A DNA stretch of 64,000 nt. Origin: a virus. Its lineage: Duplodnaviria > Heunggongvirae > Uroviricota > Caudoviricetes. Under the pieces are notes generated by a model. The model ran no database searches and was not told where the DNA came from. It saw nothing but the letters and a program-made list of their open reading frames with translations. The stretch spans positions 23,511 to 87,510 of IMG/VR virus record IMGVR_UViG_2706796742_000001; one strand, written 5' to 3'. Shown here piece by piece: positions 6,343 to 58,903 of the stretch (within the stretch, counting starts at the first letter, position 1; each line of letters starts with the position of its first letter). Made by a program: the position numbers and the translations under genes.

Positions 6343-6900
6343 ATGAGATATTTGAAGTATGCTTCATGGATTTTCCTAGCTTTGCTAGAACCATTTGCAG
6401 CAATCCTAGCAGTCATCTTAGCACCTTTTGTAGTTCCATTCTACAGTGAGAAGAAAGGGCACTTACCTTTCGGCTTCAGATGGATGGAGACATATGACAA
6501 CCCAATTGATGGTGATAAAGGTCATGTTGAACGATGGGCTAAGATTAGAAAGGTTGGTAAGCTTGGTGTCTATATGCAGAGAGTCGGTTGGCTCTGGAGA
6601 AACAAAGCTTATAACTTCTCTTACCATGTGTTAGGAAGAGATGTAAAAGATGTTACTAAGTGGAAAGGTAATATCAATGTAAGTTCTGACCCTGAAGATA
6701 ATCAGACAGGTTATCTCCTAATGTGGAACAGCAATGCTTGGGGATTATTTGCTTTTGTACCATCAATTAAAGTCTTTGGTAAACAGTTTTACTGGAGAAT
6801 TTATATTGGATGGAAACTTAAAAGTGTTGTCCCAGAAGAAAGAGCATTCTCAAGGGAAAGAGTTATGTTGGCATTCTTTATTCATCCACTAAGAAAATAA
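6343..6900 (+). CDS. hypothetical membrane protein encoded inside the tRNA array
   Basis: 185-aa ORF with AAGAGG RBS; hydrophobic N-terminus IFLALLEPFAAILAVILAPFVVPF; Trp/Tyr-rich. Confidence 0.5.
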   Translation: MRYLKYASWIFLALLEPFAAILAVILAPFVVPFYSEKKGHLPFGFRWMETYDNPIDGDKGHVERWAKIRKVGKLGVYMQRVGWLWRNKAYNFSYHVLGRDVKDVTKWKGNINVSSDPEDNQTGYLLMWNSNAWGLFAFVPSIKVFGKQFYWRIYIGWKLKSVVPEERAFSRERVMLAFFIHPLRK

Positions 6901-6908
6901 AGATTTAA

Positions 6909-6984
6909 AGGGGATTAGTTTACAAGGTTAAAACCTCGGTCTTTGAAATCGAAGAAGTTGGTTCAATTCCAACATCCCCCGCCA
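6909..6984 (+). tRNA. tRNA-Gln (anticodon TTG)
   Basis: anticodon stem TCGGT/ATCGA with loop CTTTGAA, T-arm GTTGG-TTCAATT-CCAAC, CCA; 1-72 position unpaired. Confidence 0.6.
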
Positions 6985-6986
6985 AT

Positions 6987-7065
6987 GCTCCATTACTCCA
7001 ATTGGCAGAGAGGCCAGACTTAAAATCTGTGTTATGTATCGGTTCGAATCCGATATGGAGTACCA
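6987..7065 (+). tRNA. tRNA with anticodon TAA (Leu codon TTA); variable arm shorter than typical class II
   Basis: acceptor GCTCCAT/ATGGAGT, anticodon stem CAGA/TCTG with loop CTTAAAA, ~7-nt variable region, T-arm ATCGG-TTCGAAT-CCGAT, A73, CCA. Confidence 0.5.
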
Positions 7066-7070
7066 AATTT

Positions 7071-7146
7071 AGCGGTATAGCATAACTGGCAATGCAGCAG
7101 TCTCTGAAGCTGTCTTATTAAGGTTCAAATCCTTATGCCGCTGCCA
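7071..7146 (+). tRNA. tRNA-Gln (anticodon CTG)
   Basis: acceptor AGCGGTA/TGCCGCT, anticodon stem GCAGT/GCTGT with loop CTCTGAA, T-arm TAAGG-TTCAAAT-CCTTA, CCA; anticodon arm nearly identical to tRNA-Arg(ACG) at 6248. Confidence 0.6.
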
Positions 7147-7177
7147 CTTCTAAGGGTTCTTACGAGAGTCCTTAAAT

Positions 7178-7253
7178 GTGGCCTTATCATAAATGGTAAT
7201 GACCCATGCTGTGAACATGGTCTATACGGGTTCAAATCCCGTAGGTCACCCCA
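7178..7253 (+). tRNA. tRNA-His (anticodon GTG)
   Basis: acceptor GTGGCCT/AGGTCAC, anticodon stem CCATG/CATGG with loop CTGTGAA, T-arm ACGGG-TTCAAAT-CCCGT, CCA. Confidence 0.7.
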
Positions 7254-7259
7254 ATTTAT

Positions 7260-7335
7260 AGTCCAAGTAGCTTATATGGTTAAAGCGCGTGTCTGAAAAA
7301 CATGAGAAGAGGGTTCAAATCCCACTGGACTACCA
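7260..7335 (+). tRNA. tRNA-Phe (anticodon GAA)
   Basis: acceptor AGTCCAA/CTGGACT, anticodon stem CGTGT/ACATG with loop CTGAAAA, T-loop TTCAAAT, CCA. Confidence 0.6.
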
Positions 7336-7351
7336 ATTTCAAAGGTGCTTA

Positions 7352-8086
7352 ATGAAAGAGATGACAGAACAAGGTAAGGAGATTTTTAATCTCTTAAAAA
7401 CCGGTAGAGGGTTTTCTAATCCCCTTATTACTGGTGCAGCAGTTCTCGGTGGAACCGTAGCTGCCTCTACATCACTTGTAAGCTCTATTAGCTCTGTAAC
7501 AGACCCTACAATAAAGGATAAGCTTATTGCTGCTGGACTTACAACAGTTCTACTTAGCAGCTTTACAACGAGTCTGACAAGCACTACATCAACCACTAAA
7601 ACACTGACAGATTACGGTCAAAAGTCCATTGATGAGTTTTCATCACGTATGCAGGTAGCAAAAGGATATTCTAATGCTATGGGTGCAGCAGGAGAGCAAG
7701 TCGGTTGTACACCTTTTAGTGGTATTATGGGTGTTGCTACAGAATATGGTCAAAAAGCTATTGACACAATTAACAGTGCACTAGATAGTGTTAACGGTGT
7801 GTTAAGTGACTTACAGGATGCTATTGACGAAGGTCTTGATACTATTTCTGATTTAGCTAACCAAGCTGTTAGCAAGATTAATGAAGGTATCTCGAAGATT
7901 ACAGCTTATGCAGACGAAGTTGTGCAGATGATTGAAGAAGAAGCTGCCCTTATTGCAGAGTACCTTAAAACGAATATCAATGGGTTCTTAGCAGGTATCT
8001 TACCAGACTGGTTTGATGATGCTTGTAAAACTGGTGTAATTGACACTATTGCAACACCAGAAATGAAGAACGCATTACAGAAATAA
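7352..8086 (+). CDS. hypothetical Ser/Thr-rich protein
   Basis: track ORF 7289..8086 begins inside tRNA-Phe; internal ATG at 7352 with AAAGGTG RBS is the likelier start; long S/T-rich low-complexity stretch. Confidence 0.5.
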   Translation: MKEMTEQGKEIFNLLKTGRGFSNPLITGAAVLGGTVAASTSLVSSISSVTDPTIKDKLIAAGLTTVLLSSFTTSLTSTTSTTKTLTDYGQKSIDEFSSRMQVAKGYSNAMGAAGEQVGCTPFSGIMGVATEYGQKAIDTINSALDSVNGVLSDLQDAIDEGLDTISDLANQAVSKINEGISKITAYADEVVQMIEEEAALIAEYLKTNINGFLAGILPDWFDDACKTGVIDTIATPEMKNALQK

Positions 8087-8088
8087 TG

Positions 8089-8180
8089 GAAGATTAACCC
8101 TAAAAGGTAAGGGAGCAGTTTGCTAAACTGCCAGTAGCTGAGAAATCGGTGTACCAGTTCAAGTCTGGTATCTTCCTCCA
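8089..8180 (+). tRNA. tRNA-Ser (anticodon GCT), long variable arm
   Basis: acceptor GGAAGAT/ATCTTCC, anticodon stem GCAGT/ACTGC with loop TTGCTAA, long variable arm, T-arm ACCAG-TTCAAGT-CTGGT, CCA. Confidence 0.7.
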
Positions 8181-8184
8181 ATTT

Positions 8185-8260
8185 GAATCCGTGACAGAAA
8201 TGGCTATGTGCCTGTCTGCAAAACAGGTTTATAAGGGTTCGAGTCCCTTCGGATTCTCCA
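8185..8260 (+). tRNA. tRNA-Cys (anticodon GCA)
   Basis: acceptor GAATCCG/CGGATTC, anticodon stem CCTGT/ACAGG with loop CTGCAAA, T-arm AAGGG-TTCGAGT-CCCTT, CCA. Confidence 0.7.
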
Positions 8261-54749: not shown

Positions 54750-55946
54750 ATGAACAAAGTACAAATTATTAAAAAGAATGGCTCACTTGAAGAACCGGAT
54801 ATCAAAAAAGTTTTAGCAGCAGTCACAAAGTCGGCTAACAGGGTTGGGTATAAAGAACTCCCACCAGATGTTACCCAAGCTCTTGAGTCAGCATTTATGA
54901 GGATTCTGGTAAAGTCCACTAAGCAGAATAATTTACTCGTTTCAGTAAATGATATCCACAGTATCGTTGAAGGTGCTTTGGCAGAAGTAAATCACGAGAT
55001 TTATGAGTCTTACTCAACATACAGAAATTACCGTAAAGAGGTTGCTCAAAATTGGGATGAACTTTACCAAAAGACTAAAGACACACTCTTCTTAGGTGAC
55101 CGTGAAAACGCTAACTTTGACAGTAGTTTAATTTCTACAAAAGGCTCAATTATTCGTGGTTACCTGACTAAAGAAATCTTTAAACAGTACCATTTAACAC
55201 CAGAGGAACTTGAAGCCATTGAAAAAGGGTTTATCTACATCCATGACTTAAGAGACCTAATTTTTGGTGGGATTAACTGTTGCCTGTTTGACATTGGTAA
55301 AGTACTGAAAGGTGGCTTTGAAATGTCTGGCATCGAATACTGTGAACCAAAATCTGTACTGTCAGCCTTACAAGTTATTGGTGATGTAGTGCTTTCAGCA
55401 ACTGCACAGCAATTTGGTGGTTTTACTTTAGCAGAGATTGATAAGGTGCTTGTACCGTATGCTAAGAAGTCTCTACGCTATCATGCTGAGAAAGCAGCAT
55501 CTTACGGTATTCCTAAAGAACATTACCATAATTATGTCATGGAGCAGCTACAGCTTGAATTAACACAGGGTTTCCAGTCACTAGAGATGAAGCTAAACAC
55601 TGTACCTTGTAGCCGTGGTGATTTTGCATTCACAACTTTAACATTTGGTTTACTTGACTCAGACATGTCTAATGAAGACAACCGACTACAATACATGATT
55701 GCAAACACCATTCTTGATGTTCGCATGAATGGACAAGGTAAGAGCAAGAAGCCTGTTGTATTCCCTAAACTGGTTTATATTCATGACCAGAAGAGACACG
55801 ATGAGAATATCTGTCAAGGTCAACTGTACAGTAAAGCTATTGAGTGTTGCTCTAAAGCAATGTATCCAGACTTCTTAAGCGTATCTGGTCATGGTGCTGT
55901 AGCAGAAGCTTTTGAGCGTTCTGGCAAGGTAATTTCACCGATGGGT
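54750..55946 (+). CDS. nrdD: anaerobic ribonucleotide reductase NrdD, exon 1
   Basis: 399 codons ending ...KVISPMG; frame is closed by a stop that is the first codon of the intron; joined to exon 2 gives ~714 aa. Confidence 0.75.
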
Positions 55947-56688
55947 TAACAAGCTCTATAGCTCATCTAAAACGTGCCTAAACAGGGAAACTCTACAGGT
56001 GTAGACAATCCTGTGCTAAATGATGTACGATGTAAGAAACTATATAAAATAGGAGTATTACATGCCAAATTATCATGTTACTGAGGACGGAAGAGTCTTT
56101 AGGAAAAATGGTGTAGAACTTACGCAGTGGAAATCCAACACTGGTTATATGAAAGTAAGGTTTTATGGAAGGAAGAATCGTGACATGTATGTCCATAGGT
56201 TAGTTGCTGAAAAGTATGTACCTAACCCTAACAATCTTCCAATTGTAAAACACAAAGATGATAACAAACTGAACAACCATGCTTCTAACTTAGAATGGGG
56301 AACTCATTCTGAGAATGTTAAAGAAGGCTATGAGAATGGTTGCTACAAGTTTTGTAAGCGTTCATATGCTGTGAAGGCTACACATAAAGTGACAAAAGAA
56401 GTTATTGTTGCTAAGTCAATACGAGAGTTATCTAATGTACTTGGGTATAATCGCAAGACTATCTCTTCAATATTGAAGGGTGTAAAAGAGTATAATAACT
56501 TTGAACATGATTTTGAGTACATTTAAATGCCGAACGACTAACCGTGATGAATGTAGCGGTGTAGGGTCAAGCGACTCGAAATGGTACGCTACTTAGAAAT
56601 AAGTAGAAGATATAGTCTGGACTTACTGGTGACAGTAAGCAGCTTGAATAAAGCGGGGTAAGCGTAGCGAACTTACCTGAACAACAAG
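55947..56688 (+). mobile_element. group I intron interrupting nrdD, carrying an HNH endonuclease ORF
   Basis: exon 1 ends in T, intron ends in G; intron GCTCAT (~55960) can pair with exon end ATGGGT as P1 with terminal U-G; CTAAACAGGGAAACTCTACAGGTGTAGACAATCCTGTGCTAAAT resembles the T4 td intron core as remembered; exon joining restores ...SPMG|CRAFLSPYHNEDGEEFYVGRANIGAVSLNLP. Confidence 0.75.
56062..56526 (+). CDS. intron-encoded HNH homing endonuclease
   Basis: HRLVAEKYVPNPNNLPIVKHKDDNKLNNHASNLEWGTHSEN is an HNH motif; AGGAG RBS; lies wholly inside the intron. Confidence 0.7.
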   Translation: MPNYHVTEDGRVFRKNGVELTQWKSNTGYMKVRFYGRKNRDMYVHRLVAEKYVPNPNNLPIVKHKDDNKLNNHASNLEWGTHSENVKEGYENGCYKFCKRSYAVKATHKVTKEVIVAKSIRELSNVLGYNRKTISSILKGVKEYNNFEHDFEYI

Positions 56689-57636
56689 TGTAGAGCGTTT
56701 TTATCACCATATCATAACGAAGATGGTGAAGAGTTTTATGTAGGTCGTGCTAACATTGGTGCTGTATCTTTGAACTTACCAATGATTTATCAGTATTCTA
56801 AAGAGAATGGTTTGGATTTCTGGAAAGAACTTGATAAGTACCTAGAGATGATTCGCAGCTTCCACAAGAAACGCTACGAAATGATTGCTAATATGCCAGC
56901 AAGTTCTAACCCTCTTGCATTCACACAAGGTGGTCTGTACAAAGGGACTAAGAAACCTACTGACAAGGTTGGTTGGGATATCGTGAAGTCTTTCACAGCT
57001 TCTTTTGGGGTTACTGCACTTGATGAGTTATCTGTTCTTGCTGAGGGTAAACGACTTCATGAAGTTGGAAGCTGCAGTTTTGCATACGATGTTCTGGCAT
57101 ACATTAACATGAAAACTGAAGAGTTTAAGAACGAAGATGGTTTCTTGTATGCGGTATATGGCACTCCAGCAGAGTCATTGTGTGGAACTCAGCTAAAACA
57201 GTTCAGAGATATGTTTGGCGTTATCAAAGGTGTTTCTGATAAGGAATATTTTACAAACAGTTTCCATATGAATGTTGCAGCAGATATCTCACCATTTGAG
57301 AAGCAGGACTTAGAAGAACCATTCTTCCATATCTGTAGAGGTGGCAGAATCCAGTATGTAAGGGTAGCTAACCCAGAAAACTTACCAGCACTTAAAAGTT
57401 GTATTACAAGAGGTATGTTGAAGGGTTTTTATCAGGGACTCAACTTTGACTTAGCAATCTGTGAACATTGTGGTAACAGGCCAAAGGCTGATGTTGAAGA
57501 GTGTGAGGTTTGCCATTCACATGACATCTCTGTGATTAACAGGGTGTGCGGGTATCTGGGATGGACTAAGATTAAAGGTGAATCCCGAATGAATGATGCA
57601 AAAATTGCTGAGATTCGTGATAGAGTCTCTATGTAA
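56689..57636 (+). CDS. nrdD: anaerobic ribonucleotide reductase NrdD, exon 2
   Basis: C-terminal glycyl-radical region RVCGYLG and CxxC pairs; track ORF 56770 starts at an internal TTG. Confidence 0.75.
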   Translation, partial: CRAFLSPYHNEDGEEFYVGRANIGAVSLNLPMIYQYSKENGLDFWKELDKYLEMIRSFHKKRYEMIANMPASSNPLAFTQGGLYKGTKKPTDKVGWDIVKSFTASFGVTALDELSVLAEGKRLHEVGSCSFAYDVLAYINMKTEEFKNEDGFLYAVYGTPAESLCGTQLKQFRDMFGVIKGVSDKEYFTNSFHMNVAADISPFEKQDLEEPFFHICRGGRIQYVRVANPENLPALKSCITRGMLKGFYQGLNFDLAICEHCGNRPKADVEECEVCHSHDISVINRVCGYLGWTKIKGESRMNDAKIAEIRDRVSM

Positions 57637-57789
57637 AACTTGACGAGGTGATGTGAGTCTTGATAGGCTTACATCACTTTTTTATTGGATGTTAGACATG
57701 GCAGAGAGTATTATTGGGTTGTTCATAGGTTCTGTCTTACTAGGGTTCTTTTTAGGACTTTCTTATTGTGAATTGAGAGATAAGTTAAA

Positions 57790-58417: not shown

Positions 58418-58903
58418 ATGAATTACATGGAGATTCGACCATTTGACACAGCTAATGGTGAAGGGGTTCGTGTAAGCCTCTTCGTAGCTGGCTGTAAACA
58501 TCACTGTGAAGGCTGCTTTAACAGGGAGTCTTGGAAGTTTAATGCTGGTAAAGAGTTTACTTATGCAAACCTCTACGGCATCATTAAGTTAATGGATGAT
58601 AATGCTATCAGTGGGCTGTCAATACTTGGTGGGGAACCTCTGGATGACAGAAACATTCAAGAGGTCACCAACATATGCAAGCGTATTAAAACTGTTTATC
58701 CAGAAAAGTCTATATGGCTTTGGACAGGTTTTCAACTACACGAAAAAATCCACTTAGATGTTATGAAATATGTTGACGTGGTGATTGATGGTAAGTATGA
58801 TTCTTCTAAACCAACAGTTAAACCATATCGTGGTTCTGATAACCAAAACCTCTGGAGAAAAGAGTATGGATGGCAAGGCGATTGTCAATGGCGAGCAGAG
58901 TAA
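58418..58903 (+). CDS. nrdG: anaerobic ribonucleotide reductase activating protein (radical SAM)
   Basis: CKHHCEGC is a CxxxCxxC radical-SAM cluster motif; 161 aa; near nrdD. Confidence 0.75.
   Translation: MNYMEIRPFDTANGEGVRVSLFVAGCKHHCEGCFNRESWKFNAGKEFTYANLYGIIKLMDDNAISGLSILGGEPLDDRNIQEVTNICKRIKTVYPEKSIWLWTGFQLHEKIHLDVMKYVDVVIDGKYDSSKPTVKPYRGSDNQNLWRKEYGWQGDCQWRAE

Follow-up and report, generated by a model that had tools for sequence, protein, structure and literature searches.

What interrupts the nrdD gene of this Felix O1-like phage, and can a single protein still be made from it? The DNA analysed here (the window) is a 64,000-nt stretch from a member of the genus Felixounavirus with 97% identity to phage SME50, in which the nrdD reading frame is broken by an insert. 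A first-pass annotation had reported that the frame ends after ...SPMG, resumes 742 nt downstream and gives a product of about 714 amino acids once joined, and had read the insert as a group I intron encoding an HNH homing endonuclease. The observation is confirmed here and the interpretation is supported. Judging from the sequence, the insert is very probably a group I intron of the T4 td/sunY type (IA2-like) that is both self-splicing and mobile, and it lies between Gly399 and Cys400 of Felixounavirus nrdD.

The gene and its surroundings comprise the following elements, the last being given for context only.

54750..55946, plus strand: nrdD exon 1, 399 codons ending ...SPMG, placed from the ORF list and the boundary in the intronless allele
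55947..56688, plus strand: predicted group I intron, 742 nt, with a UAA at its 5' end that stops the exon-1 frame and a terminal G
56689..57636, plus strand: nrdD exon 2, 315 codons plus the stop codon, the first codon being that of the catalytic Cys400
57645..57690, plus strand: terminator-like hairpin and T-run directly 3' of nrdD

Exon 1 begins with the ATG at 54750, runs into a TAA at 55947-55949, and encodes the ATP-cone and N-terminal half of NrdD (Pfam ATP-cone; NRDD profile positions 1-250). Its boundary is identical in the intronless allele of phage AYO145A. The frame restarts at 56689 with CRAFLSPYHNEDGEEFYVGRANIGAVSLNLP, and exon 2 supplies NRDD positions 264-560, the glycyl-radical domain (Pfam Gly_radical) and a C-terminal Zn-ribbon Cys cluster. 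When joined, the exons encode exactly 714 amino acids that align contiguously with intronless NrdD, with T4 NrdD and with the NrdD equivalog model. Specifically, sister phage AYO145A has an NrdD without interruption that aligns with no gaps and is identical at 709 of the 714 residues (99.3%), and TIGR02487 is matched as a single stretch at 481.5 bits (cut-off 326). Cys400 aligns with Cys290 of T4 NrdD, and the joined protein carries the ATP-cone, catalytic Cys, glycyl-radical domain and C-terminal Cys cluster of a class III anaerobic ribonucleotide reductase. An NrdG-like radical-SAM ORF, corresponding to the activase, lies nearby at 58418-58903. In the record of phage wV8, a Rho-independent terminator is annotated at the position equivalent to the hairpin at 57645..57690.

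An intein was ruled out as the nature of the insert. Exon 1 runs into the stop codon at 55947, and the HNH ORF, flanked by stops, uses a different frame, its offset from 54750 being 1312 nt.

The ends of the insert carry the signatures of group I splice sites. As the first-pass annotation had stated, the last base of exon 1 is T and the final base of the insert is G (G56688). The insert boundary can be slid by one base, but 55947-56688 is the sole version that ends in G, and it places the insertion in phase 0. Two pairings position the exons.

55941..55966, plus strand: P1, exon AUGGGU (55941-55946) paired with the internal guide GCUCAU (55961-55966), with a U·G pair at the 5' splice site
55954-55960 with 56689-95, plus strand: P10, guide segment CUCUAUA paired with exon-2 UGUAGAG, 7/7 pairs

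The guide that had been pointed out earlier forms six of six pairs with the end of exon 1, the terminal U·G included, and GCUCAU is also present in the nrdD introns of phages phi92, A140, F96 and T4. P10 covaries in F96, where UUGGCA and UGCCGA are read from the sequences. The U·G pair of P1, the terminal G and P10 are all found, as in other group I introns.

Between these ends, the two halves of a group I core can be folded from the helices listed below.

55973..56028, plus strand: 5' half of the core, defined by pairing, covariation and Rfam
56517..56688, plus strand: 3' half of the core, defined in the same way
55973-78 with 56583-88, plus strand: P3
55982-86 with 56010-14, plus strand: P4
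55992-96 with 56001-05, plus strand: P5
56015-16 with 56529-30, plus strand: P6
56022-28 with 56517-23, plus strand: P6a
56536-40 with 56613-17, plus strand: P7
56541-44 with 56557-60, plus strand: P7.1
56564-68 with 56573-77, plus strand: P7.2
56589-95 with 56600-06, plus strand: P8, with J8/7 being AAGAUA
56622-28 with 56633-39, plus strand: P9
56642-45 with 56651-54, plus strand: P9.1
56657-62 with 56672-77, plus strand: P9.2

Pairing is complete in every helix of the window intron from P1 to P10. When 11 related cores are compared, 95.3% of the cells in P3 to P9.2 pair and 37 of the 69 base pairs show double changes, values that none of 500 shuffles reached; slid controls pair at 34-40%. 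P7 is invariant and thus uninformative for covariation. RNAalifold independently recovers P3-P6a and P7.1-P9.2, which are all of the non-pseudoknotted helices.

Infernal likewise matched the group I model. In the intron region, Rfam RF00028 (Intron_gpI) scores 38.6 bits (E = 3.9e-8) and 17.6 bits, each below the gathering score of 50 because the endonuclease ORF splits the model. Model positions 60-138 match 55982-56056, and the match at 56459-56639 takes in the conserved GAAGAUAUAGUCU. The naturally ORF-less intron alleles of DE7 and RPN213, which are 96-97% identical to the window intron, score 55.6 and 60.4 bits and so exceed the gathering score. Because the model is split by the ORF, a scan of the whole window at the gathering threshold returned only tRNAs, and scans at the level of the region and by E-value are needed to detect the intron. 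No second intron was found in the 64,000-nt window by the whole-window E-value scan.

The T4 td, nrdB and sunY introns belong to subgroup IA2 of the Michel-Westhof classification, which is marked by additional helices P7.1 and P7.2 lying between P7 and P3' and by an extended P9.1/P9.2. P7.1, P7.2, P9.1 and P9.2 are all present and covarying in the window core, which is similar to the T4 introns, and P2 is absent, as it is in the T4 nrdD intron. Its predicted structure places the insert among the IA2-like group I introns of the T4 td/sunY type.

The state of the core bears on the proposal that it is a decayed relic that no longer splices, with nrdD being a dispensable pseudogene in the window phage. 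In at least one relative, ST11, nrdD does appear dispensable, as an imprecise deletion has removed the Cys-Arg-Ala codons, and about half of the related records are intronless. However, both exons of the window gene are intact and their protein is 99% identical to intronless alleles, all core helices remain paired, and the conserved J8/7-P7 element is preserved. Moreover, helix changes within the genus are compensatory or wobble changes, including C-G to U-A in P6a, G·U to G-C in P3, and a change in P9.2. A relic is therefore very unlikely, and a functional intron is the better account of this core.

The insert also carries a protein-coding region.

56062..56526, plus strand: predicted HNH homing endonuclease ORF (I-HmuI-like), 154 amino acids, located in the P6a loop

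An AGGAG sequence lies 7 nt upstream of this ORF, and the final codons of the ORF, together with its stop codon, extend into the 3' strand of P6a. The assignment to the HNH family, already made on first inspection, is borne out by matches to Pfam HNH_3 (2.7e-10, above the cut-off), PHROG 59 (3e-43) and the I-HmuI structure 1U3E (8.4e-10). The ORF is intact and full length, and the H..N..N catalytic residues are kept (..KHKDDN..NLEW..SEN.. opposite DHKDGN..NLRW..KIN of I-HmuI). Judged by the E-values, a chance origin of the intron and HNH matches is excluded. A candidate C-terminal DNA-binding module of the NUMOD/HTH type shows as a weak match of residues 111-137 to NUMOD1, at E = 0.038 and below the cut-off. 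A single-sequence AlphaFold model of the protein was unusable (pLDDT 35), with two helices placed at 120-144. Sigma-70-like matches upstream of the endonuclease gene were no commoner than in shuffled sequence, in a scan whose tool does not cover phage-specific promoters, and a hairpin sequestering its ribosome-binding site was not significant (z-score -1.29). Orthologues with 39-47% amino acid identity occupy the same P6a loop of introns at the same site in Justusliebigvirus, Vequintavirus and a Vibrio phage.

A gene interrupted by an endonuclease ORF can also be read as one that is split without splicing, such that its halves are translated apart and then assembled, in the style of nrdA and mobE in Aeromonas phage Aeh1, a precedent cited in PMC3653736. 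In most GenBank records, nrdD appears as two distinct CDSs alongside a homing endonuclease, and Bardina et al. 2016 (PMC4837284), who reported the split of Felixounavirus nrdD, speak only of 'a split gene interrupted by a homing endonuclease'. Against this, a complete and covarying group I core flanks the ORF, and alleles that lack the ORF retain 292-316 nt of structured RNA. In addition, exon 2 has no in-frame ATG, GTG or TTG before 56770, so that its first 27 codons are startless and a C-terminal fragment translated separately would lack the catalytic Cys. Among intron-bearing phages, these 27 codons nevertheless vary almost only synonymously. With the core present and exon 2 startless before codon 28, a free-standing endonuclease split of the Aeh1 type was rejected, and translation of separate halves is extremely improbable; one spliced NrdD of 714 amino acids would be the correct annotation model.

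Some public records already use this model. In the Bas63 record, nrdD is joined from two segments on either side of a 'putative homing endonuclease', and the phi92 record contains a spliced nrdD CDS termed a 'spliced variant'. In most of the approximately 90 intron-bearing Felixounavirus records, nrdD is given as two genes, with the second N-terminally truncated and without the catalytic cysteine. The searchable literature yielded no explicit mention of a group I intron, an RNA structure or a splicing test for Felix O1-like nrdD. In papers on these phages, the terms found were 'split gene', 'homing endonuclease' and, for phage SPJ41, an unspecific 'two introns'.

Whether the intron is also mobile can be judged from its distribution. 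Public records of Felix-like phages include 97 without the intron, 59 with the intron and endonuclease gene, and about 33 with the intron from which the endonuclease gene has been deleted. All three states exist side by side in the genus, and the endonuclease gene was deleted at least two times. Sequence markers in the adjoining exon are linked to the intron.

56689..56740, plus strand: exon-2 marker block tied to the intron, a putative co-conversion tract and, in intronless alleles, part of the candidate endonuclease target

Within the first 60 nt of exon 2, divergence between the allele classes is 16.3%, compared to about 7% within each class. This peak is one-sided and limited to these 60 nt, with fixed synonymous differences at +3 and +12, and in SME50 the tract ends near +25. 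Such a pattern beside the insertion site fits the product expected of endonuclease-driven co-conversion. Between the window phage and SME50 the intron shows 100% identity even though the exons differ, which suggests a recent transfer.

The same records could be explained differently if the intron splices but is immobile in the window lineage, with an HNH protein that is inactive or has another role and a pattern that reflects vertical descent and ordinary recombination. Loss of the endonuclease gene from about 33 records that kept the intron speaks for this reading, as does the T4 nrdB intron, an established precedent that is described in PMC1865063 as immobile with a defective HNH gene. This explanation is unlikely given that the window ORF is full length with conserved catalytic residues, and that its protein shares 95% identity with the one from Bas63, compared to 39-47% for the orthologues of other genera. 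The sharp, one-sided divergence peak and the SME50 intron, identical despite differing exons, also argue for mobility.

A pathway for a mobile, self-splicing intron can be proposed from the features observed directly here, namely the exact boundaries, a covarying RNA structure, the family to which the endonuclease belongs, a polymorphism with three states and exon-2 markers that go with the intron. We infer splicing from established group I chemistry, along with endonuclease activity and the position of cleavage. Transcription of nrdD would run through the intron, and the RNA would fold into P1-P10, with the end of exon 1 held by the guide GCUCAU and U55946 in the U·G pair. Presumably, exogenous guanosine then attacks after U55946, exon 2 is aligned by the adjacent guide segment CUCUAUA through P10, and the freed 3'-OH of exon 1 attacks after G56688. 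The predicted junction joins ...CCGATGGGT to TGTAGAGCG..., with junction peptide SPMGCRAF, and the resulting mRNA would encode one NrdD of 714 amino acids and carry the catalytic cysteine codon exactly at the junction. In mixed infections, the HNH endonuclease might nick or cut intronless nrdD near the joint of GGT and TGCAGAGCCTTCTTATCTCC, and repair off the intron-bearing genome would copy the intron together with about 25-50 nt of exon 2.

The element itself is ordinary and already known from public annotations, and current understanding is unchanged by this intron. For the homing-endonuclease life cycle in lytic biocontrol phages, the genus does serve as a convenient natural record, with empty sites, introns that carry an endonuclease, introns from which it has been deleted, and an apparent one-sided co-conversion tract. 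With this intron, the phage group I introns located exactly at the codon for a catalytic residue of a ribonucleotide reductase also gain one more example.

Several known systems can be compared with the window intron. The element and site are identical in Bas63 JohannRWettstein (MZ501086, BASEL collection), UAB_Phi87, FSL SP-010/012, JH2 and HB-2014, where the locus is 93-97% identical and no structural difference is evident. The T4 nrdD (sunY) intron shares the host gene, the guide GCUCAU, the lack of P2, the P7.1 loop UGAUGAAUGUA and the presence of P7.2, P9.1 and P9.2, and its core is the closest outside the genus (74% identity). However, it is inserted at codon 180 (phase 1, following AUGAGU), which rules out a T4-type insertion site for the window intron, located before the Cys that aligns with T4 Cys290. 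Its endonuclease is the GIY-YIG enzyme I-TevII in the P9.1 loop, unlike the HNH protein in P6a.

The resemblance to the T4 td core that had been noted in the first-pass annotation is real, with about 71% identity to td introns over the 3' 160 nt (BLAST, E = 4e-11) and 67% overall in the core alignment, with the small correction that T4 nrdD (sunY) is at least as close. The td intron with I-TevI also has an IA2-type core and an ORF looped from P6a whose end overlaps the 3' strand of that helix. It differs in its host gene (thymidylate synthase), the presence of P2, a different P7.1 and a GIY-YIG endonuclease.

One tentative and rather doubtful idea is that the window and T4 nrdD (sunY) introns are sister cores, one of which jumped between two AUGRGU sites within nrdD by guide-directed reverse splicing, followed by separate colonisation of each core, in a different loop, by unrelated endonuclease genes. 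Points in its favour are the identical guide, the closeness of the T4 core, and the unlike endonucleases in unlike loops. In a neighbour-joining tree of eight cores, the splits that bear on grouping by insertion site have bootstrap values of 35-48%, and the tree speaks neither for nor against the idea. Earlier studies, in which phage introns and their ORFs were taken to evolve independently, partly anticipate it.

I-HmuI, from the DNA polymerase intron of phage SPO1 (PDB 1U3E), is the only solved structure matched, over residues 3-115 with the HNH motif included. Both I-HmuI and the window ORF are carried by phage group I introns, but they share little identity and differ in host gene and target, and the C-terminal DNA-binding part is unaligned. 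Finally, phi92 and SD2 (Justusliebigvirus), 'Campylobacter' phage A140 (Vequintavirus) and Vibrio phage F96 carry nrdD introns at the identical position between ...MG and CR..., with cores 65-73% identical to that of the window in distant host nrdD genes. SD2, A140 and F96 have orthologous HNH ORFs in P6a, and phi92 has lost its ORF. The Cys-codon site is common to related introns in four phage lineages.

The nrdD frame opens at an ATG (54750), runs to ...VISPMG and stops at a TAA (55947), and the rest of NrdD is encoded in a frame that is open from 56689 (CRAFLSPYH...). The features of this region are:

54750-55946, + strand: nrdD exon 1
55947-56688, + strand: insert, probable group I intron
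56062-56526, + strand: ORF for a predicted HNH endonuclease (154 aa), preceded by AGGAG and lying in the P6a loop
56689-57636, + strand: nrdD exon 2

Excision of 55947-56688 (742 nt) yields a 2,145-nt ORF encoding 714 amino acids, of which 709 are identical, with no gaps, to those of the uninterrupted NrdD from AYO145A, an intronless sister phage. The joined exons and AYO145A share the DNA junction ...CCGATGGGT|TG[T/C]AGAGC.... A one-base rightward shift of the insert boundary is formally possible; only 55947-56688 gives a terminal G. The NCBIfam NrdD equivalog gives one continuous match to the joined protein, at 481.5 bits against a cut-off of 326, T4 NrdD aligns along its length, and the Pfam NRDD profile is covered at positions 1-250 by one exon and 264-560 by the other. 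Because the frame, the insert, the product and these alignments all agree, the first-pass annotation, in which nrdD stopped after ...SPMG and resumed 742 nt later to give a ~714-aa product, is exact.

The insertion point is in phase 0, between Gly399 and Cys400 (SPMG|CRAFLS). Cys400 aligns with Cys290 of T4 NrdD, the active-site residue at the finger-loop tip. Exon 2 offers no in-frame start (ATG, GTG or TTG) before codon 28, and as the reading frames stand only splicing would allow the catalytic cysteine to be translated. Exon 2 appears in public records as an independent CDS that begins at an internal ATG or TTG and encodes 284-288 aa (56770-57636 in the window; also SME50, UAB_Phi87, DE7 and others). 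These CDSs omit 27-31 codons, that of the catalytic cysteine among them, and represent a systematic mis-annotation across the genus. An apparently damaged allele is recorded for Salmonella phage ST11 (MF370225; L020 1370-1390, where an L number denotes the sequence of the phage named, here and below). Of the intron, only the initial TAA is left, exon 2 has lost its first 9 nt (the Cys-Arg-Ala codons), and the sequence reads SPMG*FLSPYH, reflecting either an imprecise intron deletion that inactivated nrdD or an assembly error.

The Rfam Intron_gpI model matches the region with E = 3.9e-8, interrupted by the internal ORF; in the window it scores 38.6 bits, with a further 17.6 bits for P4-P6, and stays under the gathering threshold. 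This threshold is exceeded in the natural ORF-less introns of the sister phages DE7 (316 nt, 55.6 bits) and RPN213 (292 nt, 60.4 bits), whose shared parts are 96-97% identical to the window's. Using the T4 td and nrdD introns as references, we assigned helices P1, P3, P4, P5, P6, P6a, P7, P7.1, P7.2, P8, P9, P9.1, P9.2 and P10, all of which are fully paired in the window. The base before the 5ˊ splice site, U55946, forms a U·G pair with the guide GCUCAU (55961-66), all seven bases of CUCUAUA, immediately 5ˊ of the guide, pair with the start of exon 2 (P10, 7/7), and the last intron base is G, so the T before the insert, the terminal G and the guide pairing first noticed in the sequence all stand. 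P7.1/P7.2 and P9.1/P9.2 are present and P2 is absent, which makes this a T4-type core. The likeness to td noted at first reading is borne out by a BLAST match spanning the 3ˊ 160 nt (E = 4e-11), and the T4 nrdD (sunY) intron is at least as close (74% core identity, compared to 67% for td).

Covariation was assessed with 11 ORF-excised cores, namely four Felixounavirus alleles, Vibrio phage F96, phi92, A140, two td introns, an Aeromonas phage terminase intron and T4 nrdD. In this alignment 95.3% of cells pair in the structure and 37 of the 69 pairs have changed at both positions; P7 is uninformative because it is invariant. None of 500 shuffles attained any of five measures, and sliding partners by 1-3 columns reduced pairing to 34-40%. 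RNAalifold, which was blind to the manual assignment and cannot draw the P3/P7 pseudoknot, recovered P3-P6a and P7.1-P9.2. Both the initial observation and its interpretation are confirmed, and the sequence evidence makes it very probable that the insert is a spliced group I intron with a homing endonuclease gene. The alternatives, a relic that does not splice or a split protein, are correspondingly improbable. In particular, a 'split without splicing' of the Aeh1 nrdA type is disfavoured because exon 2 has no early start and a group I RNA core exists.

The HNH endonuclease proposed within the insert is supported by matches to Pfam HNH_3 (2.7e-10) and PHROG 59 (3e-43). Among solved structures its one relative is I-HmuI (8.4e-10), an intron-encoded nickase with which it shares the His/Asn/Asn motif. 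There is no more than a hint of a C-terminal NUMOD1-like module (E = 0.038), and the pLDDT of a single-sequence structure prediction, 35, was too low for the model to be used. As in the td intron, the final codons of the ORF extend into the 3ˊ strand of P6a. The predicted enzyme is probably still active, although this is less certain than the intron itself.

Among public phage records, some of which are GenBank/RefSeq duplicates, 97 carry the intronless junction, 59 contain 80% or more of the 742-nt intron, and 92 cover an ORF-less intron query, so approximately 33 carry the intron minus the endonuclease gene. The exon-1 end is matched by 186 records, consistent with the summed total. Because the end points of the internal deletions in DE7 (L001 1501-1816), which leaves a 12-codon mini-ORF, and RPN213 (L002 1501-1792) differ, the gene was lost at least twice with the ribozyme kept. 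When five intron-bearing and five intronless alleles were compared in 60-nt windows, between-class divergence in the first 60 nt of exon 2 was 16.3% versus ~7% within classes; the two were equal in all other windows, with no excess in the last 60 nt of exon 1. Synonymous class differences in exon 2 are fixed at +3 and +12 and near-fixed at +9 and +18, and U at +3 also strengthens P10. In Escherichia phage SME50, whose intron is 100% identical to the window's while the exons differ, the intron-linked block stops near +25. These patterns are what homing driven by the endonuclease, with short, 3ˊ-sided co-conversion, would be expected to leave.

SME50 is also the top match (97.3%) to the 2,887-nt region, which is 93-97% identical in ~90 Felix O1-like phages (genus Felixounavirus). 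The gene lies in its usual neighbourhood, a nucleotide-metabolism block ordered nrdB, glutaredoxin, small membrane ORF, nrdD, small ORFs and nrdG. Elsewhere in the window, 25 tRNA genes (ARAGORN; 23 by Rfam at gathering threshold) cluster at 3370-8260 on the + strand, as is typical of Felix O1-like phages. In VpaE1 (L019 2353-2750), a MobE-like free-standing homing endonuclease gene lies directly 3ˊ of an intronless nrdD, and therefore a second kind of mobile endonuclease targets this locus.

Homing endonucleases inserted into conserved genes have been described in Felix O1-like phages (Moreno Switt et al. 2013, PMC3728262), and a homing endonuclease gene was reported to split nrdD in UAB_Phi87, HB-2014 and JH2 (Bardina et al. 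2016, PMC4837284). The Bas63 record of the BASEL collection, whose methods used comparative genomics to set intron boundaries, shows nrdD as two segments joined across the endonuclease gene. The element is thus known at the annotation level; our literature search found no paper that identifies the Felixounavirus nrdD element as a group I intron, presents a structure for it or examines its splicing. The intron is a routine example of a class that has been studied well.

The guide GCUCAU and an identical ...MG|CR... site are found in phi92 (annotated 'spliced variant') and SD2, both Justusliebigvirus, in A140, and in Vibrio phage F96. Three of these four carry HNH ORFs in the same loop that are 39-47% identical to the window's over the full length. 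The A140 record (L012, MG065674, UNVERIFIED), with its HNH ORF, belongs to Vequintavirus, a genus of rV5-like coliphages, and its Campylobacter host label looks doubtful. In F96 (L006 1-3700), five annotated pieces make up nrdD, along with two HNH endonuclease genes, an arrangement that suggests a second intron 5ˊ of the Cys-site intron; where two CDSs abut at 3303/3304, the break may reflect a stop or a frameshift. Pseudaeromonas phage KLEP7 (L011 2594-2861) has a different, ORF-less group I-like insert at the identical Gly|Cys site, ending ...GAAGAUAUAGUCCACAGAUG, and therefore unrelated introns have targeted one codon boundary. Two td-like cores lie close together in Aeromonas phage phiA019 (L008 2140-2700) and in the Pseudomonas phiKZ-like phage LC (L014 1380-1700, 2800-3130), in regions annotated as hypothetical proteins or unannotated.

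The T4 nrdD intron (L010, gene positions 520-800) shares the guide GCUCAU, the P7.1 loop and much of the core with the window's intron. The two may represent one core that made a guide-directed jump between two AUGRGU sites of nrdD, a question that a small tree of intron cores did not decide. The T4 intron (1,033 nt) lies elsewhere in the gene, at codon 180 in phase 1 (AUGAGU|), and carries the GIY-YIG enzyme I-TevII in P9.1, whereas the window's intron carries an HNH ORF in P6a.
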